From positions 58,853 through 98,852 of the forward strand of contig CAWKCY010000002.1 of NCBI GenBank assembly GCA_963848195.1: a stretch of DNA of 40,000 bases, written 5' to 3'. The position numbers and the translations under genes were made by a program. Within the stretch, counting starts at the first letter, position 1. Each line of letters opens with the position of its first letter. This document shows, one piece after another, positions 4,535 through 30,316 of this stretch. The notes below the pieces were generated by a model. That model had not been told where the DNA came from. It saw only the letters and a list, made by a program, of their open reading frames with translations, and made no database searches. The DNA comes from an uncultured Ignavibacteriales bacterium. Its GTDB lineage: Bacteria; Bacteroidota; Ignavibacteria; Ignavibacteriales; Ignavibacteriaceae.

Positions 4535-4944
4535 AAATTATAGTCTGTTAAAAACCCCGACATTATTTTCTTGAAAAATTTTTCTAAACCGATCAACTAC
4601 TTTCCAAATTTTAATTTTCTAATATATGACAAACTGATTTTTAAAACAACGTTTAACCATTAAAAAAATTATTGGTATTAAACCGATCACTTTATCCATT
4701 GCCTTTCAATTTAAATCCTTTTTAAGGTTGACCAAAAGTACTTTGTGTCTACTTGGTGCCCTTGAGACTTGGTGGCCAAAAATATTTACAAAAAATGAAT
4801 AAAATGACTTTTATTTTATACTGAAATAATATATATAGTCTCTATAAAAATATTCTTTTTAATGCCTTTTCGAATAATTAAATTATCTTTTGCCGGTATT
4901 TACCTCCAATTAAAATTTTCTCCCAAATTTTATAATTAATCAAA

Positions 4945-6294
4945 ATGAAAAGTCAAAAATTATCCAAAAGTCCCAAGATTTTTATCCTCGATACAAACGT
5001 AATTCTTCACGACGCCAGTTCTATAAATAACTTCCAGGAGAATGATGTTATTATCCCACTGCCTGTCATTGAAGAGCTAGACCATTTTAAAAGAGGGAGT
5101 CAGGTAATCAATCTAAATGCACGCGAATTTGCACGTACCCTGGATTCTCTTACCGGAACAGCAATATTTAACGGCGGCGTCTCAATGGGTAAAGGAAAAG
5201 GAAAAGTTGGAATAGCAATCTCCAGAGGATTAAGTAACGAGATTAAGGAGATTTTTAAAGAAGATACCCCTGACCACAGAATCTTATCTATTGCTCTTGA
5301 CTGGAATAAAAAAAGTAAAGATAAGTCCGTTATTCTTGTTACCAAAGATGTTAATCTGAGAATGAAAGCAAAAGCTCTTGGAATTCTTTCTGAGGATTAT
5401 ACTACTGATAGGATCGGCAGTGTTGAAGAGCTGTACAGCGGCAAGGAAATAGTCGAAAATTTCGATGATGACATTATCATTAAGTTTTTTCAAACCCCTT
5501 TTGAAGTACCCGCAGAAGAAATTTTGAAAAAATTAAAGGGTGAAGTTTTACCCAATAAGTTCTATATTTTTAGGAATCCTAACCGCTCTGTCCTTGCTTA
5601 TTTAGATCAAAACAAAGAAATGTTTAAGAAAATTGATAAAAATATTACATATGGAATAAAACCCCGGAACGCCGAACAGACTTTTGCAGTCGATGCTTTA
5701 ACTAATATTGAGATTCCCCTGGTAAGCCTCACCGGAAAAGCTGGTACCGGTAAAACACTTCTAGCTCTTGCAAGTGCGTTGAATATTAGAAAAAGCTACC
5801 GTCAAATATTTATTGCTCGACCCATTGTTCCCCTCAGCAACAAAGATATTGGCTTTCTTCCCGGAGATGTACAAAGCAAAATTGAACCTTATATGCAGCC
5901 TTTGTGGGATAATTTAAGGGTTATACAGGATCAGTTTTCGGAAACCGATAAACAATATCAGATGATTACAAATATGGTAAAAGAAGAAAAACTTGTAATA
6001 GAACCATTATCTTATATCAGGGGGAGGAGTCTGCAAAGAATATTTTTCATCGTTGATGAAGCACAGAATTTAACTCCTCATGAAATAAAAACTATTATTA
6101 CAAGGGTGGGGGAAGGCTCAAAGATTGTATTTACAGGAGATATTTATCAGATTGATCATCCTTATCTTGATTCTCAATCTAACGGTATGTCATATTTGAT
6201 AGATCATTTTAAGGGACAGAAACTGTATGCACATATTAATTTAGAAAAAGGTGAAAGATCTGAATTAGCTGAATTAGCCAGTAACCTGCTGTAA
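4945..6294 (+). CDS. PhoH-like ATPase with N-terminal PIN domain (YlaK-type)
   Basis: N-terminal PIN motif (FILDTNVILHD), Walker A (GKAGTGKT) and Walker B-like (FFIVDEAQN). Confidence 0.9.
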   Translation: MKSQKLSKSPKIFILDTNVILHDASSINNFQENDVIIPLPVIEELDHFKRGSQVINLNAREFARTLDSLTGTAIFNGGVSMGKGKGKVGIAISRGLSNEIKEIFKEDTPDHRILSIALDWNKKSKDKSVILVTKDVNLRMKAKALGILSEDYTTDRIGSVEELYSGKEIVENFDDDIIIKFFQTPFEVPAEEILKKLKGEVLPNKFYIFRNPNRSVLAYLDQNKEMFKKIDKNITYGIKPRNAEQTFAVDALTNIEIPLVSLTGKAGTGKTLLALASALNIRKSYRQIFIARPIVPLSNKDIGFLPGDVQSKIEPYMQPLWDNLRVIQDQFSETDKQYQMITNMVKEEKLVIEPLSYIRGRSLQRIFFIVDEAQNLTPHEIKTIITRVGEGSKIVFTGDIYQIDHPYLDSQSNGMSYLIDHFKGQKLYAHINLEKGERSELAELASNLL

Positions 6295-8735: not shown

Positions 8736-8937
8736 ATATAACACTGCATTTAAGTCGCAGCCCAGAACAAGTACCTTACATTTATTACTAATGCCGAAGT
8801 TATGCAAAACATTCGTAACTTGTTTTTTCACACGCATGTTTTCCAAGACTATTAATTACTTTTACCCCGTTGAAATGGCTTTATCTTATTTTCTAAAATG
8901 TTTCTTACATAGACTTTAAGATTTCACTTAGTTATAA
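8736..8937 (-). repeat. attC (diverged right arm)
   Basis: atATAACactgcatttAAGTCGCAGCCCagaacaag ... agACTTtaagatttcacttaGTTATAA. Confidence 0.6.
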
Positions 8938-9569: not shown

Positions 9570-9831
9570 GCCTAACGAACCGCAATTAAGTTGCAGCCCA
9601 TAACAAGAAACTTACTTTTATTACTTCTGCCGAAGATTAAGCAACCTGTGCTTAAACCTGTCCGCCGAAATTTAAATGTAGGCGGATTTCCATTTACGAC
9701 AACCACAGTTTCAAGACTATTAATTAATTTGACTACGTTGAACAAGATTCTTTAAGTGGATCATCTACTTAAAAAACTCTAAAATGCCGAATGCGTAAAA
9801 TGCTGTCAACTTAAATTGTATTATGTTGCCC
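9570..9831 (-). repeat. attC
   Basis: GCCTAACgaaccgcaattAAGTTGCAGCCC ... aatgcgtaaaatGCTGTCAACTTaaattgtattatGTTGCCC. Contains an internal hairpin TCCGCC..GGCGGA. Confidence 0.85.
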
Positions 9832-9832
9832 C

Positions 9833-10156
9833 TTATTCTGAAAACATCTCTATTAGTTTTGATATTATCTTGTTTTGAATTGGTTTATTAAGTGTTGTAA
9901 TTTTTTTAATTAATCTTGATTTATCTACGGTTCTTATCTGATCTAAAACTATTTGTCCTTGTTTTCCTTCAACTTTACATGGAACTCTTGTAGGATAGTT
10001 ACGAAGCCTTGATGTTAATGGTGCTATTATTACAGTAGATATATGATTATTCATTTCATTTGGAGAAATGATTACACATGGTCGTGTCTTTTTAATTTCA
10101 CTTCCTATTGTAGGATCTAAATTTATTAAATAAACTTCAAATCTTTGATATTCCAC
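9833..10156 (-). CDS. mazF: MazF/PemK-family endoribonuclease toxin
   Basis: 107 aa with YLINLDPTIGSEIKKTRPCVIISP, typical of PemK/MazF. Abuts the antitoxin gene. Confidence 0.9.
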   Translation of the reverse strand: MEYQRFEVYLINLDPTIGSEIKKTRPCVIISPNEMNNHISTVIIAPLTSRLRNYPTRVPCKVEGKQGQIVLDQIRTVDKSRLIKKITTLNKPIQNKIISKLIEMFSE

Positions 10157-10414
10157 TTACCATTCCCATTCTTCATTATCCCAAGATGTTGAATTTTCTA
10201 AATATTCCTGATATAACAGAATGTCATCATTATTTTCTGACATTTTTTGGAAAGCATTCTCCCAATCTTCTCTTATTTTTGATGTAGGTTTTAATATAAT
10301 GGTTTTATCTTTTACTTCTATTTCAACTTCACTTTTTAACCCACTTTGTTCAAGCATATGTCTTGGGATCCTAACACCTTTCGAGTTTCCTATTTTAATC
10401 ACCTTTGTTTTCAT
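10157..10414 (-). CDS. mazE: MazE/AbrB-fold (SpoVT) antitoxin
   Basis: 85 aa with KIGNSKGVRIPRHML (swapped-hairpin AbrB motif). Sits directly upstream of mazF. Confidence 0.85.
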   Translation of the reverse strand: MKTKVIKIGNSKGVRIPRHMLEQSGLKSEVEIEVKDKTIILKPTSKIREDWENAFQKMSENNDDILLYQEYLENSTSWDNEEWEW

Positions 10415-10496
10415 TTCAATCCTCTTCTATTTATGTAGGTACAATGTAATTACTTTTTAAATAATATGCAAATAATATTTTATATGTTTATATGCA

Positions 10497-10582
10497 ACAT
10501 AACGAACCGCAATTAAGTTGCAGCCCAGAACAAGAAACTTATTTTTATTACTTCTGCCGAAGAATAAGCAAACCATGCTTAA
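10497..10582 (-). repeat. attC, R'-L' half only (truncated by IS-associated deletion)
   Basis: acATAACgaaccgcaattAAGTTGCAGCCCagaacaagaaac...gcttaacttgattccatttacgg, then the sequence continues as an IS recombinase-gene fragment. Confidence 0.75.
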
Positions 10583-11289
10583 CTTGATTCCATTTACGGA
10601 GAAGATATTCGTCAATATATTTCCTCTTCCGTAAGAATAACAAGAACTACTCACGTGCTGCTATGACTAAGGTTTACAAATTTATGAGACTTACTACTGA
10701 AGAATTTATCAGGCGCTTTCTACAGCATGTCCTCCCTAAAGGATTTGTTAAAGTTAAATACTTCGGGTTGTTCGCCATAAAAAACCGGAATCTTCTTAGC
10801 ATTGTCAGGCAACTATTCGATTCTACTACTATAATTAATACAAAACCTAATGATAAAACCGCTGCAAAAAAAAATCCTTGATAATTTTATGTCCGGTATG
10901 CGGGAATCAAATGAATTTAGTACTTACACTACAGCGTCTTAATTATTACGATAAGTCTCCGCCTTTAAATAAATTTTCCTTTTTTATAAATGATGAACAC
11001 TTAGCTATAAATAAAAATCTTAATAGTTCTCAATAAATTATTTCTAAATATGGAAAATTATCTCAATATAAATGAATTTATAATTACGCTTAAGCTGGTT
11101 ATCGAAAAAAAATCAAATTTCATCCCTTCAATATCCCTCTTTCGGACATATTTTGGTTTATTTCTTCTATATAAAATTTATTGAAATTACAGGTTAGTAG
11201 AGTAAGTCGCTTACGGCTTAGTCCAACACAGGATTATCATATATGGCTATGCCATGCCTCGGCAAGCTTCGGCATGAATCCCTTATAAC
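10583..11289 (+). mobile_element. internal-deletion derivative of the IS91-like element (variant A)
   Basis: 10583-10668 matches the recombinase gene at about 12855-12940. After that come the transposase C-terminus, a roughly 250-bp right end and the terminal hairpin CATGCC-tcggcaagcttc-GGCATG, ending ..cttataac|GTTATAT. Confidence 0.7.
10663..10881 (+). pseudogene. IS91-family transposase C-terminal fragment
   Basis: EEFIRRFLQHVLPKGFVKVKYFGLF aligns with EEFIRRYIQHVLPKGFVKVRYFGLF of the intact copy (24399-25565). Confidence 0.75.
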
Positions 11290-11308
11290 GTTATATGCTT
11301 ACTTAACA

Positions 11309-12397
11309 TTAATAAATTTGATACGTTATTTTATAAAATACAACTTTTGAACCATCATCCGAGAATATTGGCTCAATCCCATTTGATAATAATTTTTTAT
11401 CAGTACCATCACTATTTGATACCCATAATTCGTAATCAAAGAATTCATTAACTGTTTGATTTTCAAATTTATTTTTTTGCTTCATAACTACATAAGCAAG
11501 TTTAGTACCGCCCTTAGAAAAAGAATATTCGAAATCATTTTGCGGTAATTCATCAATATAACTTGCTTGTAAATCTTTTAAATTTATTGAAATTAAATGA
11601 TTTGGATAATCATTTGTTATTGCCGCTACTCTTTCAGAATTACTTGAAATTTTCAAAGGACCAAAATATGATAGATTTCCATACAAAGATATATTACTAG
11701 AATCTTTTATTGAGTATATACATAATGTATCAAGTATTCCCATATTAACATTATTATTTATGAAATATATATTTGAATCAGAGTCATCAAATTTAGGGTA
11801 ATTAAAAAAAGGTGTCCACATATCTTTGCGATCAGGTCTTTTAAGAATCACCTTACTTTGTTTACTTTTTATATCGTAAATGGATATTGTTTGATCACCA
11901 TTCCCTGATTCTGTAGGAGATGTAGTATATACCACTTCTGAACTATCATGTGAAAAAGAAGGATAATTTTCTATTTGGTTTGGTGTGTGAGTAAGATTTG
12001 AAATTTCATAATTTGTAAGATCTATTAAATATAGATCCATATTAACATCAGTTGTAGCACTTACAACAAGATATTTCTTGTTCGGAGATATTTCAGCATG
12101 AATAATACTATAAAAATTCAATTTAACATCCTGAATAATATTCATATTTGATAAATCAATCATCTGAAGTCTATCATTATTCAATGATAAAATCCTCTCA
12201 TCATTCTGAATAATAAATAAATATTTTGAAATATAATTTACTTTTGATTCTTGAAAATATGAACCGTCAATATTGCTAATGCAAAGGCTATAAACAGAAT
12301 TAACAGAGGGGTAACCTTCAACTCCATCTTCTTTTATATAACATGATGAAATCGAACAAATAACTATTATTATTAATAATATTTTGAAATTTTTCAT
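11309..12397 (-). CDS. lipoprotein with TolB/PD40-like beta-propeller repeats (cassette)
   Basis: Lipobox ICSISSC. Repeated motifs of the type ISPNKKYLVV / FSHDSSEVVY / FSKGGTKLAY / FSDDGSKVVF. Confidence 0.6.
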   Translation of the reverse strand: MKNFKILLIIIVICSISSCYIKEDGVEGYPSVNSVYSLCISNIDGSYFQESKVNYISKYLFIIQNDERILSLNNDRLQMIDLSNMNIIQDVKLNFYSIIHAEISPNKKYLVVSATTDVNMDLYLIDLTNYEISNLTHTPNQIENYPSFSHDSSEVVYTTSPTESGNGDQTISIYDIKSKQSKVILKRPDRKDMWTPFFNYPKFDDSDSNIYFINNNVNMGILDTLCIYSIKDSSNISLYGNLSYFGPLKISSNSERVAAITNDYPNHLISINLKDLQASYIDELPQNDFEYSFSKGGTKLAYVVMKQKNKFENQTVNEFFDYELWVSNSDGTDKKLLSNGIEPIFSDDGSKVVFYKITYQIY

Positions 12398-12409
12398 AAT
12401 GGATTTAAG

Positions 12410-12608
12410 TAATTTTTAGCAAGTAGGCGTTGTTGCTAAGCCGCCGCCCAAAACAACAATGCCAAATTTGTTAATTAAATTTTATGTTTAGAAAAACTTT
12501 TAACTATTGAATCAAGTTGAACAAGTTAGCCGAAGCGGAGTACCTTACATTAAAATTTATAAAATGCCGAATGCGTAAGAAGCGGTCGGCTTGAGCAACT
12601 TGTTGAAC
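12410..12608 (-). repeat. attC (non-canonical R' end) of the higBA-like cassette, separated from it by the IS
   Basis: ..cgttgttgCTAAGCCGCCGCCCaaaacaacaatgcc...aaaatgccgaatgcgtaagaaGCGGTCGGCTTgagcaactt GTTGAAC (12602-12608). Confidence 0.7.
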
Positions 12609-14320
12609 TAAGCCGCAAGCGGCGGGGAGGTTTTCGGCATTCTACCTATTTCATTGCATCCCGCTTTTACATAGTATACCCCAACTAAATAATTTTTTCT
12701 ACCATCAATAATTTAGCGAGGTATACTATGAACGAACTAATTCAAAGACTTAACGAAAATATGCAACTTTTCGGTCTTTCTCAACGCACTCCAGAAACTT
12801 ATTCTTACCGTGTAGTAAAATTTATTGAGTATTTTAATAAACCTCTTGATTCCATTTCCGGAGAAGATATTCGCCAATATTTCCTCTTCCTTAAGAATAC
12901 CAAGAACTACTCACGTGCTGCTATGACTATTGCATTATGTGCCATTAAATTCTTTTATGAAAAAACCCTTAATGAAAAGTTCAATGTTTTTAATATCATC
13001 CGTCCCAAACGTATCTTTAAACTACCGGTTGTTCTTAGCAGGGAAGAAGTAAGAAAAATTCTTATGAATATCCGTGTACTCAGGCATCGGGCTTGTTTAA
13101 CTCTCATCTACTCTTGTGGTCTTAGATTAAATGAAGGCGTAGGCCTGAGAGTTAACCAGGTTGACAGTAACAGAATGTTAATTCATGTCCAGAAAGCTAA
13201 AGGTAACCATGACCGGTATGTACCTCTACCTGAAGCAACTCTTAAATTACTCAGACTTCATTATAAAACTCACAGAAACCCTCTGCTTGTTTTCCCCGCC
13301 CCCGGAAGAGGACAGAACAATGAGTCTACTTCTATTAAACCTCTTCCTGACAGCAGTATACTCCCATAGGGATGGCTATGCCAAGACCGTATTTAAGAAA
13401 TCTCTTAAACAGACCGGCATCAACAAGGACGCTTCTGTACATACTCTCAGGCATTCTTACGCTACTCATTTACTTGAAGACGGTACCGATATTAGAATCA
13501 TTCAAGACTTTCTCGGGCATTCCTCTATTAGAACTACTATGATCTATACCCAACTAACACCTTTGATTAAATCTAATACCTATCAAAAGATAAACAGCTT
13601 AATGAACGACCTCTTCTAGCTCTGCTGCTGTGGTTAAGCTATCGGAGATTATTAGGGACTATAGAGATATCTATCTGGCTAAATATTCTAACTCAATGCT
13701 TCTTTCACATAAGAAAGCACTCTTCGATATCTCTTCTTGCCGGACTCCCATTATAGGAGGACAAGTATACAAATGTAATTCTTGCAGCTATTATCATTAC
13801 AGCTTCCATTCTTGCGGCAATAGAAGCTGTAATAATTGTCAGAACAATAATGCCAATGATTGGTTAGCCAAAAACAATAATCTGCTGCTTCCGGTTAGTT
13901 ACTTCATGGTTACCTTTACTTTACCTAAAGAGTTAAAGCGTTTTGCAAGAAGCAATCAAAAACTTTTTTACAATATTCTGGCATAGCCATCCCTTTGGGA
14001 TATTCAACTGCTCGGCAAAAACCATTGACTCCTTCTCATCAAATCCAAAACACATTGGTGCTAAACCCCGGATATCTCGGCGTGCTGCATACCTGGTCTA
14101 GTTCCGAAGGAATGGATTACCAAAAACTATCCTTCCATCCGCATATCCATTATCTAATTACCGGTGGTGGCCTATCGGTTAACAGTCAATGGGTTAGCTC
14201 AAATAATAAATTCTTATTCCCAGTTAAAGCTCTATCCATTGTCTTTAAGGCCAAATTCCGGGATGAATTAAGAAAGTCAATCCACTGTTATTGCCTCGGC
14301 AGGCTTCGGCATGAATCCCT
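12609..14320 (+). mobile_element. decayed IS91-like element (variant A): frameshifted recombinase and truncated transposase
   Basis: Left end TAAGCCGCaaGCGGCgg directly after GTTGAAC. The right terminal hairpin (14293-14316) is fused to the middle of the transposase gene. Confidence 0.75.
12728..13619 (+). pseudogene. tyrosine recombinase, frameshifted (two overlapping ORFs, 12728-13369 and 13185-13619)
   Basis: Both pieces are collinear with the intact 287-aa recombinase (23539-24402). The [15 protein letters not shown] and LGH..TTMIYT motifs lie in the second frame. Confidence 0.8.
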
Positions 14321-14324
14321 TTAG
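13630..14324 (+). pseudogene. IS91-family Y2 transposase, N-terminal half with an internal stop, 3' truncated
   Basis: A Zn-ribbon (CNSCSYYHYSFHSCGNRSCNNCQ) and the HUH region (LHTW...HPHIHYLITGGGL) are split over ORFs 13630-13986 and 13995-14324. Confidence 0.75.
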
Positions 14325-14347
14325 GGCACATGTTTGTGAAAAGTTTA

Positions 14348-14623
14348 TTATCTAATATTTAATTGGAGTTTCTTTCCAATTGCTTCAAGGTAATTTTTTA
14401 ATGTTGATATTCTGATGTCTTCTGAATGGTTTTCAATTCTTGATATTGCTGATTTTTTTGTTTTTAATTTGCGGGCAAGTTCTTCCTGGGTTATTCCAGC
14501 TTCTTCTCTCGCTTTTCTTAAAGCAATACCTATTTTGAAGTTATCGTATCCGGTTTCAAAATCTTTTGCAAACTTTTTACTCTTTAATTTTCTTTTTTCT
14601 ATATATATTTCTAAATCATCCAT
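14348..14623 (-). CDS. XRE-family HTH antitoxin (HigA-like)
   Basis: 91 aa with the [35 protein letters not shown]. Sits downstream of, and overlaps, the toxin gene. Confidence 0.8.
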
Positions 14624-14969
14624 TTCTTTTACTCCTATTTATATATTCTTTCATCCTTTTTTCCGCAGTCTCAATTTCTTTTTTTGGTGTCTTTTGAGTT
14701 TTCTTATGAAATCCATTTGTTAAAACAATAAAATTATTACCATCAAAAAATCCAAGTATTCTAATAGTATCTCTTCCAACTTGAACTCTTATTTCCCATA
14801 AATCAGTTGAAACCAATTTTTTAAAATATTCTTTTGGAATTAAATCTAAGTCTCTAATTATTCTTAAAACCCAAGCTACTTTCTTAGCTTGCTTATCAGT
14901 TAAACTTTCCAAAAACTCTTCAACTGGAGAATCACCTCTTTCGTTTTTGTAAAATATAACTATTTTCAT
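14616..14969 (-). CDS. RelE/ParE-superfamily toxin (HigB / Gp49-DUF891-like)
   Basis: 117 aa with the toxin-first gene order typical of higBA; [42 protein letters not shown]. Confidence 0.75.
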
Positions 14970-15041
14970 ATTACAAAGTTAACATATTCGTTAACGTTTG
15001 CAAATATTAACAAATTGAGGATAAGATTATTTGAATACCAT

Positions 15042-15288
15042 TAGTTCTCAAATAATTATTTTCAAGTATGCAAAAACTTCTCAATACTAATGAATTTATA
15101 ATTACGCTTAAGCTGGTTATTGAAAATAAATCAAATATGATCGCTTCTATATCCTTTCTTAGGACATATCCGGGTTTAGTACTTCTATAAACATTTTATT
15201 GAAATTACAGGTAGTAGAGTAAGTCGCTTGCGGCTTAGTCCAACACAGGATTATGCCTCGGCAGGCTTCGGCATGAATCCCTTATAAC
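15042..15288 (+). mobile_element. right-end fragment of IS91-like variant A
   Basis: About 250 bp nearly collinear with 11025-11289, ending ATGCC-tcggcaggcttc-GGCAT gaatcccttataac|GTTATG. Confidence 0.7.
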
Positions 15289-15289
15289 G

Positions 15290-16813
15290 TTATGTTTTTA
15301 CTTTACTTATTTGAGAAACATTTGATAATAAATCTTTAACGATATTGTTTGCTTCAGAAATAATTGCTTCCGGATATTTCATTATCCCTAATAATTTAAT
15401 GGCATTACCAGATGAACAAGGTCCTTCTTTAATTTTATAATTAAAAAAGATTTTACCGTTTTCCACTTGCTCACTAAAATGAAACATCTTAAAATTATGT
15501 TCTAGTAAATCTTGTAATTCAACGTCGTGTGTAGTAACAAATACTTTATTATTTATATCAAGATATTTCAAAACAGCAGTAGAAGAAGCAAGTCTCTCAA
15601 TTTTGTTTGTTCCTCTCAATATTTCATCAACAAGAAACAAAATAATTCTTCTTTCCTTCCGACAATTTTATAAAATTATTTAGCGATTCTATTTCAACAA
15701 AGAAATAACTTTTTCCTTCTTCCAATTCTTCATTTCTACGGATTGATGATTAAACAATAAGTTTTGGAGTGACTATTTCATTAGCTAAACCAAAATACAC
15801 TGACTGTGAAAGAATAATATTTATTCCTACTGTTTTAATAAAAGTTTTTTGCCAGACATATTTGACCCAGTAATCAAAACAGAATCTTTTATATTTTCTA
15901 CAGTATTCGATACAGCATTCTGAACCAAAGGATGATATAAATCCCGGAAATTTATCTCATCACATTAGTAAAGGTCGGGGTTGTATAAAATGGAATTTCT
16001 TCTAAATAAGAAGCGATAGATATCGAAGTATCGAGACTGGCTACATTTTCAAAAACAGAGCGTATATCATCTTGTTTTTTTATCAGAGTATTAACCGAAC
16101 GATAATATGCAATTATATCAAACAATAAAAACATATTTAGGTATTCTATTACAGCAAGTGCAAGTTCATTCAATGATAATTTGTCAATAACAAAAAAACC
16201 TAGTTTCTTTTTAAGTGATTTTAATAAGTACCTTTTTTCTTTTAGGAATTCAACCTCATCGATTACAATATTAGTTTTTATTTTACTTAATGAGATAGCT
16301 GATATTATTAAAGAATTAAGACTGGAAAAGCCGGTAAAATATTCATAAATCTTTTTTGAAAATATTTTATTAAGAATAAGATTGGTTAATAAAATGGCTA
16401 ATGAAACAAAAAGAAATACCATTTATAGAAATAAAAAGAAGAGAAATTATTGAAAGAAGTGAGCATAAATAAAAAAGCGGATAAAACTTTGTATTAGGAA
16501 GATCTTTACTTAAAACTAAATACGATGTAAAGTAAGATTCTGTACCGGATAATCTAAAAAGATTTATCTGAATACTTTCTCTTAATTCTTTATTCTTTTT
16601 AAGGTGGGAAACTAATTTATATCTCTTTTCAAGAATTTTTTCATCGCTTTCATATTTATGTAAAAGATAATATAAATATTGTTGACTAATACCAGATATA
16701 TTTCTATCAATTTTAGCAAAAACTGAATCGATATCTAAATCATTCCAGGTTTTATCATCAACATATTCGTCATCACTTTTCTTTGCCAATAAATTATAAT
16801 ATGAAGAAATCAA
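15290..16813 (-). pseudogene. MutS-domain-V-type ATPase with N-terminal membrane region (MutS-related, non-MMR), decayed
   Basis: Three ORF pieces. The N-terminus has DDKTWNDLDIDSVF plus TM segments. The gap at 15640-15950 encodes ITGSNMSGKKTF (Walker A) in a broken frame. The C-terminus has FLVDEILRGTN...VFVTTHD. Confidence 0.7.
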
Positions 16814-16848
16814 ATCATAATTTCTATGTTTATCTATTTGTTTTCCCC

Positions 16849-16887
16849 ATTATGCCTCGGCAAGCTTCGGCATGAATCCCTTATAAC
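16849..16887 (+). mobile_element. solo terminal hairpin of IS91-like variant A
   Basis: ttATGCC-tcggcaagcttc-GGCATgaatcccttataac, immediately followed by GTTAGGT (16888-16894), the R'' box of the upstream cassette. Confidence 0.6.
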
Positions 16888-17054
16888 GTTAGGTGCATTT
16901 TTATTACACAAAGTAATGATATATTTTTCTATTTGTTAATAGCTATAGTAATGTTAAAAATCCAATTCCAAAATCAATCAAATCATTATTGTCATCATAA
17001 TATCCTTTATAATGATTTGTTTTTAGATATTGAATCTTTAAAACAAGAGCCCAA

Positions 17055-17591
17055 CTAGGATTTTAAAAATATTTTCGTACCGCAAAAAAATGCAGGGAAG
17101 GTTATCTCCGCATATTTCCAACCAGAATCCATTTCAAGAATATTGAAATTAGGCTCATTATTGCTAAGAATATATCTTGTTGCAGACACACCTATCTTTG
17201 TCCCAATAAATAGTAATAGAGTATTGTTAATATGATAGTTGTAGGAGATACCACCAAATATTCCAAGTCGATGATTATATGTTTTATAAATCCACTTAGT
17301 ATATGAATTATTCGGATATGATGTGAATACATTATTTTTAACATAGTCGAATGTATAATTTAAATCCAAAAGAATCTCAATATTTGAGGTCACATAATAT
17401 CCAATTTCAGGTTCAATTTGAAACTGAAGTTCTTTATAAAAACCAGAGTCATCTGGACCAAATGGTGAATTTGTATTTGAATACGAGAATAAAATATTTC
17501 CACCAATTTCAAAAATTGAATATTTATTTTGAGCATGAGTACTAATAAAAGTAATTATAAAAACCAGAACTACTTTATTTATTAATTTCAT
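17055..17591 (-). CDS. small outer-membrane beta-barrel-like protein (cassette)
   Basis: Start moved to MKLINKVVLVFIITFISTHAQ, a signal peptide; the track start at 17612 is GTG inside the attC. Sequence is beta-strand-rich. Confidence 0.6.
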   Translation of the reverse strand: MKLINKVVLVFIITFISTHAQNKYSIFEIGGNILFSYSNTNSPFGPDDSGFYKELQFQIEPEIGYYVTSNIEILLDLNYTFDYVKNNVFTSYPNNSYTKWIYKTYNHRLGIFGGISYNYHINNTLLLFIGTKIGVSATRYILSNNEPNFNILEMDSGWKYAEITFPAFFCGTKIFLKS

Positions 17592-17610
17592 ATTATTATC
17601 CCTTATTTGC

Positions 17611-17931
17611 ACCCTACGGCTTTGCGGCTAAGGCGCAGCCCAGAACAGCAATGCCGCTTTAGTTAAATAAATTTTACAATTAAAAAAATCTTTCATAACT
17701 GAACAACGTTGAACAAGAAACTAAGCACGGAACGACAAACTTAAAAACCTAAAATTGCCGAGAGCGAAATCGCTGTCGTCTTGAATACCCCCAAAAGGCA
17801 ACTTGCCTTTTCTCATTAAAACATTGACATCCAAATATGTATGTTGTCAAACTAAGCAATTTTTAAACTATTCGATTTTAGTCTAAAAATGCACTTTCCA
17901 CAAGGATGTCATTAGCAGCCGCGGGTTAGGC
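17611..17931 (-). repeat. attC carrying a roughly 130-bp internal insertion
   Basis: acCCTACggctttgcggCTAAGGCGCAGCCCagaacagcaatgcc ... gagcgaaatcGCTGTCGTCTTga, then [17776-17908], then attagcagccgcggGTTAGGC (17925-17931). Confidence 0.65.
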
Positions 17932-18955: not shown

Positions 18956-19188
18956 GCCTAACGAACCGCAATTAAGTTGCAGCCCATAACAAAAAACTTT
19001 TATTTATTACCTCTGCCAAAGATTTAGCAAACTGTGCTTAATTTTCCATTTACGATAAGCACAGTTTGCAAGACTATTAATTAATTTGACTACGTTGAAC
19101 AAGATACTTTTTGCGGATCATCTACCTTCAAAATCTCTAAAAAGCCGAATGCGCAAAATGCTGTCAACTTAAAATTGCTTTGTTAGGT
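18956..19188 (-). repeat. attC
   Basis: GCCTAACgaaccgcaattAAGTTGCAGCCC ... 13-bp stem GCAAACTGTGCTT/AAGCACAGTTTGC ... aatgcgcaaaatGCTGTCAACTTaaaattgctttGTTAGGT. Confidence 0.9.
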
Positions 19189-22195: not shown

Positions 22196-22427
22196 ATATA
22201 ACGAACCGCAATTAAGTTGCAGCCCAGAACTAGAAACTTTTATTTATTACTTCTGCCAAAGATTAAGCAAACTGTGCTTAAATTTCCGTTTACGACAAGC
22301 ACAGTTTGCAAGACTATTAATTAATTTGACTACTTTGAACAAGATACTTTAAGCGGATCATCTACTTCAAAAATCTCTAAAAAGCCGAATGCGTAAAATG
22401 CTGTCAACTTAAATTGCATTGTTAGGG
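22196..22427 (-). repeat. attC
   Basis: atATAACgaaccgcaattAAGTTGCAGCCC ... GCAAACTGTGCTT/AAGCACAGTTTGC ... aatgcgtaaaatGCTGTCAACTTaaattgcattGTTAGGG. Confidence 0.9.
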
Positions 22428-22507
22428 CAAATTTCTATATGCAAAATTAATCCTTTATTTTTATATAAATACTTAAATTATTATATAGCAATTTTATGAA
22501 TTAAAAA

Positions 22508-23170: not shown

Positions 23171-23224
23171 AGTTTTTCTCCATTTAATTAAATTTAAAAT
23201 AATCTTTGTATATTTTTTATTTAG

Positions 23225-23414
23225 CCCTAACGGCTAAGGTTAAGCTGCTGCCCATAACTACAATGCAACATTTAAAAACCCAAGCCGATGATTTTTAACA
23301 AACTTTTTTATTTAAAAATACTTTAGACAAGATACTTTAATCGGAGCACAAAACTCTAAAATCTGTAAAATGCCGAGTGCGTAAGAAGCAGTCAGCTTAA
23401 ACCTAATGTTGAAC
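23225..23414 (-). repeat. attC, separated from its cassette ORF (25834-26658) by the IS
   Basis: cCCTAACggctaaggtTAAGCTGCTGCCCataactacaatgc ... aaaatgccgagtgcgtaagaaGCAGTCAGCTTAaacctaatGTTGAAC (23408-23414). Confidence 0.8.
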
Positions 23415-23538
23415 TAAGCCGCTAGCGGCAGCCTTACTAATTATCTACCATAAAAAAGCATCCTGCAAATAAAAGTTGGTCATGTCTTTCCAGTAATTTT
23501 TAGATAAATCAATTTTCTCAAATTATAAGGAGGAAGAC

Positions 23539-24402
23539 ATGACACAACTTCGTAAAAAAATGCTCGAAGATATGAAACTCTTCGGCTTATCTGAACGTAC
23601 TCAGGAAACTTACATTTATGCCGTAAGTAAACTTGCACAATATTTTCATAAGTCACCAGACCTCATCTCTGATGATCAGCTTAGAGAGTATTTCCTATTC
23701 CTGAAAGATAAATATGCTCGTAATACTTCCACCATTGCTATCTGCGGTATTAAGTTCTTCTTTGAAAAATCCTTAAAGAAACCATTTAAGATATTCGGCA
23801 TCGTTCGTTCTCCAAAAGTTAATAAGCTTCCCGTTGTTCTTACCAGAGAAGAAGTACAACTGATATTAAAAAACATCCGTACACTCCGCCACCGTGCTTG
23901 TCTTAGCCTTATTTACTCTTGCGGACTTAGATTAAAGGAAGGTGTATCCCTTAAAGTAAACCAGGTAGACAGTAAACGCATGGTTATTCATATTCAGCAA
24001 GCTAAGGGATTAAACGACCGTTATGTTCCGCTTCCTAAAGCAGCTTTAGAAATTCTCCGTGCTCATTATAAAACTCACCGGAATCCTTTACTTGTCTTTC
24101 CTGCTCCGGGTAGAGGAGAAAGTCAAGAATCTAGTTCTACAAAACCTCTGCCGGATAGTTCTATACAAACTGTCTTCCGGAAATCTTTGCTTGAAACCGG
24201 CATCAATAAAGACGCTCATGTTCATACTCTCAGACATTCTTATGCTACTCATCTTTTGGAAGACGGTGTTGATATTAGAATCATTCAGGAATACTTAGGA
24301 CATAACAACATTGAAACTACTATGATCTACACTCATCTTACTCCTCTTATCAAAGATGGAGTTTATAATAAAATAAACTCTCTGATGGATGGCTTAGTAT
24401 GA
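23539..24402 (+). CDS. tyrosine recombinase (phage-integrase family) of the IS91-like element
   Basis: 287 aa with SAM-like N-domain and catalytic residues in [25 protein letters not shown] and TTMIYTH. Confidence 0.9.
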   Translation: MTQLRKKMLEDMKLFGLSERTQETYIYAVSKLAQYFHKSPDLISDDQLREYFLFLKDKYARNTSTIAICGIKFFFEKSLKKPFKIFGIVRSPKVNKLPVVLTREEVQLILKNIRTLRHRACLSLIYSCGLRLKEGVSLKVNQVDSKRMVIHIQQAKGLNDRYVPLPKAALEILRAHYKTHRNPLLVFPAPGRGESQESSSTKPLPDSSIQTVFRKSLLETGINKDAHVHTLRHSYATHLLEDGVDIRIIQEYLGHNNIETTMIYTHLTPLIKDGVYNKINSLMDGLV

Positions 24403-25565
24403 TTGCTTTATCTGATATCCTTCAGACATACGGACTGTCTTATTTGGAAAAGTATTCAGCTTCAATGCCCTATAATCATAAAGCAGCAATCCGTAATATT
24501 CTTCAATGCCGGACTGAAAAACTTGGCGGTCAGGCTTATTATTGTGATAACTGCAAACAGTACCGTTATAGCTATCATTCATGCGGTGACAGAAACTGCA
24601 ATAAATGCCAGTGTGATAAAGCTAAAGAATGGTTTAGTAAAACTTCTCAGCTTCTTCTTCCCCTTACTCACTTTTTAATTACCTTCACCATGCCCGATAT
24701 TTTAAGACAGCTTACAAGAGCTAACCAGCTTCTATTTTACAATATACTTTTTAAGGCTGCTTCAGCTTCGCTGCAAACTTTAGCTTGGGACTCAAAATAT
24801 GTCGGAGGCAGAATTGCTATGATGGCCGTTCTGCATACCTGGACAAGAACTCTTAACTACCATCCACATCTGCACTTTATTGTTCCCAGTGGTGGCCTTT
24901 GGGATGATGGTAATCTCTGGCTGCAAAGCAGTGAGAAATTTCTTGTGCCTGTTTGTGCATTAAGTAAACTCTTTCGTGCTCAAATGCAGAAGCGGATTAA
25001 AAACAAGGCTCCTGAATTATATAATTCCATTCCAAATAAAGTCTGGAATCAAAAATGGGTCGTGCACTGTAAAGCTGTGGGAACCGGACAGAAAGCTGTG
25101 CAGTATCTTTCCGAATATGTTTTTCGTCCCGCTATAAGTAATAACAGGATAATAAACATGGATAATGATTTTGTTACATTCAGCTACAAAGACAGTAAAA
25201 CTCAGTTTAAGAAAACAATGAAACTTATTCCGGAAGAATTTATCCGGCGTTATATTCAGCATGTGCTGCCTAAAGGTTTTGTTAAAGTGCGTTACTTCGG
25301 GTTGTTCTCTAATACCAATAGAAAACTTCTTGCTGAAGTTAAAGAAAGATTACCTCAAAATAATTATAATTATCCAAAGAACCCTGAAACCAAACCCGCA
25401 GATGTTAAAACTGCAGAAGTTAAATCAACAACTCATAGAATAATTATTTGTCCTCATTGTAATAAGCCAATGCGGATTATAGGAAGTCTTCCAAAATTAA
25501 TATACAATGATAAATCTCCCCCTTATAATATATTTATCCACTTATACAGCACTTTTAATGGATAG
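24399..25565 (+). CDS. IS91-family Y2 HUH (rolling-circle) transposase with an N-terminal Zn-ribbon
   Basis: 388 aa with CDNCKQYRYSYHSCGDRNCNKCQ, the HUH region LHTWTRTLNYHPHLHFIVPSGG and the Y-x3-Y motif AVQYLSEYVFR. Overlaps the recombinase gene by 4 nt. Confidence 0.9.
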   Translation: MIALSDILQTYGLSYLEKYSASMPYNHKAAIRNILQCRTEKLGGQAYYCDNCKQYRYSYHSCGDRNCNKCQCDKAKEWFSKTSQLLLPLTHFLITFTMPDILRQLTRANQLLFYNILFKAASASLQTLAWDSKYVGGRIAMMAVLHTWTRTLNYHPHLHFIVPSGGLWDDGNLWLQSSEKFLVPVCALSKLFRAQMQKRIKNKAPELYNSIPNKVWNQKWVVHCKAVGTGQKAVQYLSEYVFRPAISNNRIINMDNDFVTFSYKDSKTQFKKTMKLIPEEFIRRYIQHVLPKGFVKVRYFGLFSNTNRKLLAEVKERLPQNNYNYPKNPETKPADVKTAEVKSTTHRIIICPHCNKPMRIIGSLPKLIYNDKSPPYNIFIHLYSTFNG

Positions 25566-25833
25566 ATTTTTTCTGTCTGTGGTAATCCCTAGCCTGAAAA
25601 TGAAATGACTGGTATTATTTCGATAAATACTTTACTGTTTGACTTTTAATTTGTTCTTTATTGTCTTTTTAACTTTTCTTTTCTGTTCTAAAACAAAGTT
25701 TGACAAACCTAATCCTCCATTGAAAACCCAAATAGTTTTCTGAATATGACCTGCATACTGCTATGCCCGGGCTTGTTCAACAACGGTTTGAAACTCGGCA
25801 AGCTTCGCTTCAAACCTTATTTCGTTAGGTTGC

Positions 25834-29008: not shown

Positions 29009-29932
29009 CTACAATTTATCTGCTGGACTCTTTACTCCCATTCCTCCTTTTCTCATAACATGAGTATAAATCATTGTGGTATTTAAATCTTCATGGCCAA
29101 GTAATTCCTGAACTGTTCTTATATCATAACCATCTTCTAAAAGATGGGTTGCAAATGAATGACGGAAAGTATGACAACTGCCTTGCTTTTTTATTCCTGA
29201 ATTTTTTATCGCAACTTTCACTACTCTTTGAAGTACACTTTCATCTATATGATGTCTTCGTTTCAATCCTGTCCTTTTATCTACCGATATTTGTGAAGAT
29301 GGAAATACATATTGCCAACCTAATTCTTTATTTGCATTTGGATATTTCTCTTCCAATGCATATGGTAAATAGACTCCTCCCAAGCCTTTTTTGATATCTT
29401 CATTATGTAGATTTTCAACTTTTATTAAATGACGGTTCAATTTATCTTTTATAATTTCCGGTAAAATTGTAACTCGATCTTTACTACCTTTTCCATTCCT
29501 TATATTTACTTGGTTATATTCAAAATCTATATCCTTAACTCGTAGCCTGATACATTCCATTAAACGCAATCCTGAACCATATAATAAATTCGCCATTATC
29601 CAGTTTACTCCCGTCAATTTAGTCATTACAGCTTTCACTTCAGTTTTGGTAAATACAACTGGTAATCTCTTCCCTTTTTTTGCCCAAATTAATTCTAATT
29701 TTTCTAATTCTTTGTTTAATACATGCTTATATAAAAATATTATAGCACATAAAGCCTGGTTTTGAGTTGAACTCGAAACATTTCTTTTTACGGCTAAATA
29801 ACTGATATATTTACTAATTTCATTCGCCCCAAGTAATAAAGGATGTTTTTTTTCATGAAATAAAATAAAATCCCTTATCCAATTAATATAAGTTTCCTCC
29901 GTTCTCTTACTATAATGACTAACTCTCATCAC
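29009..29932 (-). CDS. intI: integron integrase
   Basis: Tyrosine recombinase motifs ([47 protein letters not shown]). Also the IntI-specific insertion ALEEKYPNANKELGWQYVFPSSQISVDKRTGLKRRHHIDESV. Confidence 0.9.
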   Translation of the reverse strand: MMRVSHYSKRTEETYINWIRDFILFHEKKHPLLLGANEISKYISYLAVKRNVSSSTQNQALCAIIFLYKHVLNKELEKLELIWAKKGKRLPVVFTKTEVKAVMTKLTGVNWIMANLLYGSGLRLMECIRLRVKDIDFEYNQVNIRNGKGSKDRVTILPEIIKDKLNRHLIKVENLHNEDIKKGLGGVYLPYALEEKYPNANKELGWQYVFPSSQISVDKRTGLKRRHHIDESVLQRVVKVAIKNSGIKKQGSCHTFRHSFATHLLEDGYDIRTVQELLGHEDLNTTMIYTHVMRKGGMGVKSPADKL

Positions 29933-30316
29933 TGTTTTTATCTGTTCTATTAATTTTGGCTTTTTAGGTATGTAGCCTGTAAGACTGTCTTTATTTGTTT
30001 TTTTTTATTTCTTCCCCGAAATAGTTTTGAGCTTTATTAAAAATAAACTTTATTTTTTACTATTAACAAGAATTTTTCCCACCACCAACCCCCAACCACA
30101 TACAACCAACAAACTATTGGACACAGCTTCGCCAATTGAGCCACATCAACGTTTGGGGTAATAAAATTAAGGGTCCATAGAAAGTTCTCCCGTGCCCCAT
30201 TTTATTTTATGAACAATTTAATTTATATCGAAAAAATCTAATTTTCAATACAATTCTTTTAATAAAATAAAAATTCCCAAAAGTAAAATAGAAATAGACG
30301 GATATAAATATCCAAT

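Follow-up and report, generated by a model that had tools for sequence, protein, structure and literature searches.

An IS91-type insertion sequence with a tyrosine recombinase gene at the R'' boxes of integron attC sites, and the remnants of its decay, in an Ignavibacteriaceae cassette array

The DNA considered here is a stretch of 40,000 nt (the window; G000:C2:58853–98852) from the genome of an uncultured member of the Ignavibacteriaceae, in which a two-gene insertion sequence (IS) of the IS91 family occurs, intact or in pieces, at five attC sites of an integron. The host genome (G000; other G labels denote genomes of relatives and C labels denote contigs) has a size of 6.2 Mb in 25 contigs and a G+C content of 33%; it is probably a long-read metagenome-assembled genome (MAG), and its nearest relatives are uncultured Ignavibacteriaceae and Ignavibacteriales MAGs. 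The region constitutes the distal half of a chromosomal integron cassette array. The integron integrase gene intI (29009–29953) gives a TIGR02249 match of 450 bits (cut-off 265), encodes the integron-specific insertion and adjoins attC-bounded cassettes, and it lies on the minus strand like the cassettes, in the 'inverted' integron layout. The array comprises 16 cassettes whose open reading frames (ORFs) extend, on the minus strand, from about 28.5 kb down to about 7.9 kb and are separated by long repeats, the attC sites, which are unusually long at 185–320 bp. At least 11 attC 5' arms are present in the window array, with R/L box pairing visible in folds; genome-wide, attC arms were located with a tightened regular expression.

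Read on the plus strand, these sites begin with YYTAAC and a stem arm ending in GCNGCCC, and at their far end the complementary arm, which contains bulged bases, is followed by a 3-nt spacer and GTTRRRY; on folding, R'' pairs with R' and L'' with L'. The intI gene and attI are located at the high-coordinate end of the array, the cassette ORFs are likewise on the minus strand, and the bulged bases fall on the arm adjoining GTTRRRY of the plus strand. This identifies the minus strand as the attC top strand, with the plus-strand GTTRRRY as the complement of R'', in agreement with the strand assignment that the first-pass annotation of this DNA had assumed.

The element is about 2.41 kb long and encodes an IntI/Xer-like tyrosine recombinase and an HUH-Y2 transposase of the IS91 type. 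An intact copy of its variant B (23408–25823, plus strand) lies between an attC body (23222–23407) and the R'' box GTTAGGT (25824–25830), its right end, ..AAACCTTATTTC, stopping at 25823 immediately before that box. The recombinase gene (23539–24402) and the transposase gene (24399–25565) overlap at ATGA. The transposase is full length, with the Pfam domains Zn_Tnp_IS91 (PF14319) and Y2_Tnp (PF04986) and a score of 382 bits against NF033538 (transpos_IS91, cut-off 125), and the HPHIH and YLAQY motifs are visible in a translated variant-A copy. The recombinase matches Pfam Phage_integrase and SAM_4, and its best family match is TIGR02249, at 184 bits against the cut-off of 265 and split into 4–182 and 236–310. 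It shows 31% identity to the resident IntI, with a gap of about 36 amino acids where the IntI-specific insertion would lie, and both the low score and the lack of a domain between patches II and III place it outside the integron integrases.

The two ends of the element are distinct. The left, terIS-like end reads GTTGAAC-TAA-GCCGCAAGCGGC and carries the palindrome GCCGC-AA-GCGGC, and its repeat GTTGAACTAAGCCGC(A/T)AGCGGC recurs in inverted form, as GTCGCTTGCGGCTTAGTCCAAC, close to the right end. The terminal inverted repeats extend over 22 bp, and their heptamers GTTGAAC and GTTGGAC both fit the R-box consensus GTTRRRY. These repeats also require a correction, since the left ends placed earlier at 12609 and 23415 were 7 nt late and GTTGAAC (12602–12608 and 23408–23414) belongs to the element. 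The right, oriIS-like end consists, in order, of the inverted repeat copy, a conserved hairpin and a tip of 5–8 nt. In variant A the hairpin has 10 bp (GGATT-ATGCC / GGCAT-G-AATCC), lies 8 nt from the end and is followed by the tip CTTATAAC; variant B shows the same layout with the compensating stem GGTTTGAA/TTCAAACC and the tip TTATTTC. The hairpin is kept in distant relatives too. Z-scores of the isolated terminal hairpins were not significant, and support for the structure comes from the covariation between the A and B stems, which differ by compensatory changes, and from the fold of the whole circle junction considered below.

Variant A is represented in the window by four pieces, all on the plus strand, with right ends at 11289, 14320, 15288 and 16887 as annotated at first pass, and a MAFFT alignment of the five window pieces with two other genomic copies confirmed the anatomy of them all. 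The right end ..GGCATGAATCCCTTATAAC stops at 11289 before GTTATAT, at 15288 before GTTATGT and at 16887 before GTTAGGT, and the deleted form at 14320/14321, GAATCCCTT followed by TAGGGC, corresponds to the expected CCCTT-ATAACGT-TAGGGC minus 7 nt.

The piece at 10583–11289, identified by alignment, BLAST and a Pfam Y2_Tnp fragment, is a derivative with two internal deletions, in which recombinase nt 243–327 are followed by the transposase C-terminus, from nt 1805, and the right end. The first deletion runs from the interior of an attC into the recombinase, leaving the attC 5' part at 10497–10582 (R' box ..ACATAAC, L' arm and about 60 nt of interior), so that this site is cut after about 100 nt; the second joins recombinase nt 327 to transposase nt 1805 at ACTA (10666–10669). 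An 18-nt insert (11236–11253) directly precedes the hairpin, and beyond the tip lies the orphan R'' box GTTATAT (11290–11296) of a beta-propeller cassette (ORF 11309–12397, minus strand). The copy at 12602–14320 retains an intact left end (GTTGAACTAAGCCGCAAGCGGC) and is preceded by an attC body (12420–12601) extending from the L' arm to the L'' arm GCGGTCGGCTTGAGCAAC with the spacer TT, the R' box being degenerate. Its recombinase gene is interrupted by a 22-bp insert (13362–13383), and its transposase gene carries inserts of 22 and 21 bp (13979–14000 and 14102–14122) and is shortened by a deletion of about 750 bp that begins at A:1626, reaches the hairpin and has TTAT at its junction (14289). 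A further 7 nt (ATAACGT) are lost at the joint of tip and target, where the R'' remnant (GT)TAGGGC (14321–14327) of a HigB/Gp49-HTH toxin-antitoxin cassette (14348–14969, minus strand) follows.

The third piece, a right end of 247 nt (15042–15288), consists of subterminal non-coding sequence, the right inverted repeat GTCGCTTGCGGCTTAGTCCAAC, hairpin and tip, and is 90% identical to a remnant in the relative G148 that has different flanks. It abuts the orphan R'' box GTTATGT (15289–15295), which contains the stop codon of a decayed cassette for a MutS-domain-V ATPase (15290–16848, minus strand). The frame of this pseudogene stays open, with no start codon, into the junction with the fourth piece, a solo right end of 39 nt (16849–16887) that retains the inner hairpin ATGCC..GGCAT and GAATCCCTTATAAC, is fused to the 5'-truncated ATPase pseudogene and is followed by the orphan R'' box GTTAGGT (16888–16894) of an outer-membrane beta-barrel cassette (17055–17612, minus strand). 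No attC body is found to the left of 15042 or of 16849. The observation that neighbouring attC sites or cassette 5' ends are missing beside the fragments was therefore upheld by the cut attC at 10497, the lack of an attC body beside these two pieces and the startless MutS-V gene.

The claim that all variant-A copies are dead likewise held within the window, where deletions or inserts affect all four; they were inactivated by short insertions and microhomology-mediated deletions. A further variant-A copy, at G000:C2:164624–164683 and G000:C3:1–2351 (2411 bp when joined), straddles two contigs, which are probably adjacent since one ends and the other begins within it. No A copy elsewhere in this genome is intact, the C2/C3 copy having two single-base frameshifts and a copy on C15 many lesions; intact A-type transposase genes are present in the relatives G148 and G164. 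The C2/C3 copy adjoins an interrupted second intI (C2:162722–163444), pointing to a second integron in the genome, and a third intI fragment is located at C6:4622–5344.

In each of the five window attC sites the element occupies the place where the spacer on the L'' side would meet the R'' box (GTTRRRY, plus strand), and this position recurs well beyond the window. The 19-nt variant-A tip has 18 occurrences in the window's genome, against none for a reversed control pattern, an excess far above what chance would give, and of some 20 variant-A tips in this genome nearly all are followed by GTTA(G/T), with differing sequence beyond. Within the taxonomic family the 19-nt tip was found in 19 of 201 sampled genomes, representing 11 of 56 genera, with up to 22 copies that are often 1–2 kb apart, and the reversed control gave at most one match, in 7 genomes. 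When the window's genome and its relatives are taken together, 47 of 57 distinct junctions show the tip followed by GTTA and then by (G/T)(G/A/C)(T/C). There are about 52,000 GTTA sites in the genome, so the tetranucleotide alone is insufficient to explain the choice of site. In 34 of the 37 junctions with enough flank, the longest frame that is open beyond the tip runs towards the junction, with its stop often within 25 nt, and the junction therefore corresponds to a cassette 3' end, that is, to R''. On the other side, all eight left junctions (from four genomes) follow an L'' arm and 3-nt spacer, and this, together with the attC top-strand assignment, supports the targeting of R'' boxes that had been claimed at first pass.

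Filled and free sites match to the base. A filled site on contig C15 of G148 reads ..GCTGTCAACTTAAATTGCATT, a 2474-bp element and GTTAGGGC, and a free attC in the window (22380–22433) reads ..GCTGTCAACTTAAATTGCATTGTTAGGGC. In the relative G178 a free attC ends with ..GCGTAAGAAGCGGTCGGCTTGAGCAACTT followed by GTTATAC, and the 29 nt preceding GTTATAC are identical to the left flank of the 12602 copy. Empty-site orthologues of the four affected cassettes were not found in the genus, and the filled and empty pairs are generic ones. These comparisons reveal no target duplication, the GTTG at the left end being part of the inverted repeat. The element invariably has the same orientation, enters at the boundary of R'' with the spacer/L'' arm and leaves the target unduplicated.

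An attC piece that travels with the element was also considered, as GCGTAAGAAGC is present in all three element-bearing attC sites of the genome and in none of 12 free ones; it was ruled out by an uninterrupted attC of G178 that contains GCGTAAGAAGC, and by elements of G148 and G064 that lie in ordinary attC sites of the AAAATGC type. Relatives of the element in other Bacteroidota MAGs (uncultured Bacteroidia and Saprospiraceae), 35–38% identical, show the same end layout with GTTAG next. An insert of about 190 nt in G052 (contig C24, locus L111), whose ends are inverted repeats (GTTGAGCCTGTCGAAAAAG .. GTTCAAC .. CTTTTTCGACAGTCTC), occupies the boundary between spacer and GTTAGGC of an attC, and is possibly a non-autonomous relative of the IS.

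Identical flanks beyond GTT, which would have pointed to a single duplication, were looked for over 300 bp and the flanks proved unrelated, the five right flanks showing no significant similarity among themselves or elsewhere in the genome. Moreover, the A copies fall into at least three sublineages, with identities of 83–93% in subterminal non-coding sequence and 94–100% in the functional termini; in a 181-nt subterminal region, the piece at 10583–11289 is 83.5% identical to that at 15042–15288 and 93% identical to the C2/C3 copy. Between the recombinase genes of the copy at 12602 and the C2/C3 copy, dS is 0.29 and dN 0.017 (dN/dS 0.05), and among A copies dN/dS amounts to 0.05–0.13 for the recombinase and 0.26–0.56 for the transposase. 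Divergence under purifying selection must have arisen mostly while the lineages were functional, before inactivation, and when combined with the unrelated flanks and the distinct sublineages it argues for separate insertions rather than one duplicated block, as had been proposed. The 39-nt solo end represents a fifth junction, at yet another cassette. On this comparative evidence there were five independent hits, each on a different cassette, made by variant B and by three or more A sublineages; the insertions may have occurred in this array or in cassettes that were imported later.

The deletions spare the right tip and the R'' box and take away the left part of the element together with the attC body; in some cases the next cassette also loses its 5' end. 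A MazEF cassette in the relative G114, 93% identical over 9807–10598, continues into a normal attC interior, the rest of which was therefore deleted in the window copy at 10583. In the genus, right tips exceed left ends by about 72:9 (roughly 8:1), the two counts deriving from patterns of slightly different stringency, and this survival bias is an addition to the claims made at first pass. Starts of remnants in the genome cluster at A:2355–2359 (5 cases) and at A:2373–2377 (5 cases, one of them the internal deletion within the 12602 copy), positions that lie in the right inverted repeat or at the inner hairpin base. Microhomologies of 3–4 nt mark the deletion junctions (ACTA at 10666 and TTAT at 14289), and the recognisable left neighbours of remnants are the R'/L' half of the same attC. 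The clustered starts and the attC-half neighbours indicate that the usual outcome is a deletion from inside or beyond the attC to just before the terminal hairpin. Internal fragments of the element lacking tips are also present in the genome.

A right-end remnant of variant B with two internal deletions (G000:C1:232349–232560, minus strand) lies between the attC R' stub ACATAACGGCTTAAAATG and the R'' box GTTATAT, and variant B therefore leaves the same kind of relic as variant A. Excision by the integrase at the R'-like GTTGGAC was rejected as a source of the solo ends, since remnants retain TTAGTCCAAC or start inside the hairpin, and one-ended transposition by solo ends was not borne out by two C1 solos that share a left flank, as the similarity covers only about 40 nt.

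Joining the two ends would yield the circle junction ..CCCTTATAAC followed by GTTGAAC, and the A and B joints are both predicted to fold into a long bulged hairpin (−19 to −26 kcal/mol, z −3.8 to −6.0). In this fold the repeats pair over about 20 bp (..GTTCAAC/GTTGGAC..), a 5-nt stretch from the joint is unpaired and an inner stem follows. The folded attC top strand has the same plan: the R''/R' duplex closes with YTAAC/GTTR, the spacer stays unpaired and the L stem is bulged on its 5' arm, and it is directly after that YTAAC that the element sits.

Several other explanations of these junctions have to be weighed. It is scarcely credible that the junctions go back to one insertion whose element end and flank were later duplicated as a block, or that they are assembly chimeras of a repeated element. 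The element is indeed repeated, and one copy breaks the assembly at the end of C2 and start of C3, but the sequences beyond GTT are unrelated, the copies differ in length, lesions and sublineage, and the same architecture occurs in independent assemblies of sister genomes; fragments as short as 39–707 nt, and a 1.7-kb copy that differs by 10% from every other, also make collapse of a repeat unlikely. We consider it improbable, too, that some or all of the short right ends were never full-length on site and are either truncated or miniature copies mobilised in trans or parts of composite cassettes captured from other genomes. Right tips about eight times as frequent as left ends, lying 1–2 kb apart in arrays of several genera and conserved at 97–100%, would suit such a history, as would the relative in G052, resembling a miniature inverted-repeat transposable element (190 nt), at the same position and the fragments at 15042 and 16849 with no attC remnant to their left. 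Where a left neighbour is recognisable, however (10497–10582, C1:250859, C9:307072, G148:C25 and, for the B type, C1:232349), it is the 5' half of the same attC without the L'' arm, which implies deletion and not clean insertion; moreover, the remnant lengths form a nested series (39, 57, 127, 196, 247 and 607 nt), and tip-less internal fragments exist.

The hairpin module of 39–57 nt might instead be a second, short type of attC, with the IS91 unit itself a cassette bounded by it. Its top strand, R''(xxxTAAC)-GTTATAAG-GGATTCATGCC-loop-GGCATAATCC-TGT-GTTGGAC, is organised like a small attC with a bulged base and is of matching size (about 58 nt), and the module, found in abundance, always comes after a cassette ORF. 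This is nevertheless very unlikely, because conservation runs past the would-be crossover into element sequence (TTGGACTAAGCC..) instead of giving way to varied cassette starts, the R'-like box and one half of the stem are missing from the 39-nt forms, longer remnants extend into the transposase, and uninterrupted attC sites of the same subtypes lack the module; no array was found in which the module ends at G/TTGGAC with diverse sequence beyond. The recombinase, finally, could have inserted the element by an IntI-like crossover at G/TT between an attC-like circle junction (..TATAAC followed by GTTGAAC) and the R'' GTT, the transposase only supplying the circle. It is nearest to integron integrases, both terminal heptamers (GTTGAAC and GTTGGAC) match GTTRRRY, the circle junction folds into an attC-like R duplex, bulge and L stem, and a crossover anywhere within GTT would generate the junctions seen. 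We still judge this route unlikely, since enzymes of the IntI type cleave R' rather than R'', the IntI-specific domain for reading extrahelical bases is missing from the recombinase, the same two-gene elements, compared as gene pairs only, are common on Clostridium, Herpetosiphon and rhizobial plasmids, and the target rule, a terIS-like tetranucleotide beside oriIS without duplication, is that of the IS91 transposase (PMC13181058).

Very probably, then, an attC-specific member of the IS91 family invaded the array repeatedly and its A copies subsequently decayed by deletion. By analogy with IS91, the transposase would cut the bottom strand 3' of YAAC at both ends and release a single-strand circle, which would be joined 3' of YTAAC in the target, at the end of R'' on the attC top strand. 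The deletions could result from replication stalling or template switching at the terminal hairpin, possibly with synthesis primed at a transposase nick, and progressive erosion and selection for the 3' end of the neighbouring ORF may be further causes of the right-end bias. Some points count against such a history or limit it. Transposition, strand cut and circle are extrapolated from the family, and the junctions would fit a tyrosine-recombinase crossover at G/TT equally well. The target tetranucleotide is GTTA and not the GTTC/CTTG of studied IS91 members, and the fragments at 15042 and 16849, without an attC remnant on the left, may have arrived already truncated. Hairpin-anchored deletion is a proposal, and the clustering could stem partly from progressive erosion. 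The single-base frameshifts of the C2/C3 copy may be sequencing errors of a long-read MAG, unlike the lesions of the window copies, which are broken by insertions and deletions of 7–750 bp.

On an extended and rather doubtful reading, the element would be a mimic of integron sites, its circle junction being attC-like and the folded attC top strand resembling its own junction, a likeness that would account for both the site and the strand chosen. Its terminal GTTGAAC would substitute for R'' and keep the attC foldable, the host integrase would be able to move 'cassette + IS' as one composite cassette, and the many solo right ends would be by-products of replication that the transposase nick had primed and that broke off at the hairpin; such ends could still provide origins from which neighbouring cassettes are mobilised in a one-ended, ISCR-like manner.

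Judging from what is known of attC function, cassettes in the interval from about 10.4 to 17.6 kb have presumably lost any foldable attC of their own, and the integrase would be unable to move them singly. The first-pass annotation had regarded the element as a cause of cassette immobilisation, and this stands for the deletion derivatives; it need not extend to full-length insertions, where GTTGAAC fits the R-box consensus and lands where R'' was, so that the attC may remain foldable. The window thus illustrates a long-term outcome, with five attC sites of a 16-cassette array hit, four of them partly or wholly deleted, and a block of about 7 kb, carrying toxin-antitoxin and other cassettes, apparently frozen.

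Other small sequences recur around these sites. The 22-bp insert, TCCCA(T/A)AGGGATGGCTATGCCA, consists of two mini-palindromes and may be a tiny mobile insert or a footprint; it is found at 13362–13383 (plus orientation) and 13979–14000 (inverted), with a related 21-mer at 14102–14122, and elsewhere at the same transposase site in G000:C3:9173, at C20:380448 and inside an attC at C24:100014. An 18-nt relative (11236–11253) directly precedes the terminal hairpin both in the window and in G148. All attC types of the array share an internal block (a)cGTTGAACAAGA (e.g., 9735–9747 and 19092–19104), whose heptamer equals the left terminus of the IS; an attC at 8737 (8737–8880) is truncated exactly at this block, as is the attC beside the remnant in G148:C25, and the block could act as a pseudo-terminus or as a patch of microhomology.

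A group II intron at G000:C3:6125–8040 (L025), with domains D1–D4, an intron-encoded protein of 458 amino acids and a DV–DVI match of 39.7 bits, occupies an attC R' box, directly behind its GTTA, and shares its strand with the cassette ORFs. Truncated IS right ends are joined to roughly the last 75 nt of this intron at 8 or more loci in several genomes (L038, L039, L044, L055, L057, L061, L065, L066 and G000:C1:248014), and a shared 10-nt patch, TTGCGGCTTA, may be the recombination point. The repeat ..CAGATCCCGGCGTGCAGTTT, which is fused to many truncated right ends and was considered as another attC type, proved to be the reverse complement of the intron domains V–VI.

Bacteria capture genes mainly by means of integrons, for which attC sites serve as the currency. 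The element described here occurs in at least 11 genera of one family, and distant Bacteroidota relatives share its end architecture. The strong survival of the origin-like end also bears on how IS91/ISCR-type elements reshape adjacent DNA, including that of resistance integrons.

Among known systems the closest is the IS91 family (IS91, IS801 and IS1294/IS1294b, with their ISCR relatives), to which the element belongs by its full-length HUH-Y2 transposase, two different ends with subterminal palindromes, lack of target duplication and target tetranucleotide beside oriIS. For IS91 the target beside oriIS is a tetranucleotide similar to that at terIS and is not duplicated, a bottom-strand circle is formed, the upstream orf121 overlaps tnpA, and the targets of studied members are GTTC/CTTG, with T second in all (PMC13181058). 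Here too a T-second tetranucleotide, GTTA, abuts the end downstream of tnpA and resembles that of the other end (GTTG), and the stop of the upstream ORF overlaps the tnpA start as in orf121. The element differs in targeting GTTA within the structured R'' box of attC on one strand, and not any GTTC/CTTG, in having a tyrosine recombinase in place of Orf121, and in its 22-bp terminal inverted repeats with heptamers matching the integron R-box consensus. The same pair of genes, for an IS91 family transposase and a tyrosine recombinase or integron integrase, is carried by two-ORF members on Clostridium, Herpetosiphon and rhizobial plasmids, which are only 35–38% identical to it; the architecture itself is therefore already known. 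In the literature searched, an IS91-like element adjoining attC is mentioned once, in passing, and for two-ORF IS91 elements no rule on attC target or orientation and no pattern of decay is reported.

The literature searched describes two classes of attC-specific mobile elements, IS1111-attC and the group IIC-attC introns. Both known kinds also occur in the genus, as the intron at the R' box (G000:C3) and as an IS110/IS1111-like element in an L'' arm of G114. In the latter genome (C23:~4740–5200, L101) an orthologue of the MazEF cassette of the window retains the whole of its attC, which is interrupted in the L'' arm (after GCTGTCA) by an element with an ORF starting MKTSNKISFDNSHFFVGVDTH, which looks like an IS110/IS1111-type transposase and would be a third kind of attC invader in the genus. 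IS1111-attC and the group IIC-attC introns resemble our element in homing to attC, in inserting in one orientation and in interrupting cassette mobility. The former employs an RNA-guided DEDD transposase and the latter a ribozyme with a reverse transcriptase, compared with the HUH-Y2 transposase and tyrosine recombinase found here; only IS91-type transposase domains were detected in the element, which sets it apart from IS1111-attC. It also differs from both in its position, at the boundary of spacer and R'' on the top strand, and a rolling-circle IS91 element with an IntI-like recombinase would represent a third attC-homing class, precise to one nucleotide and one orientation.

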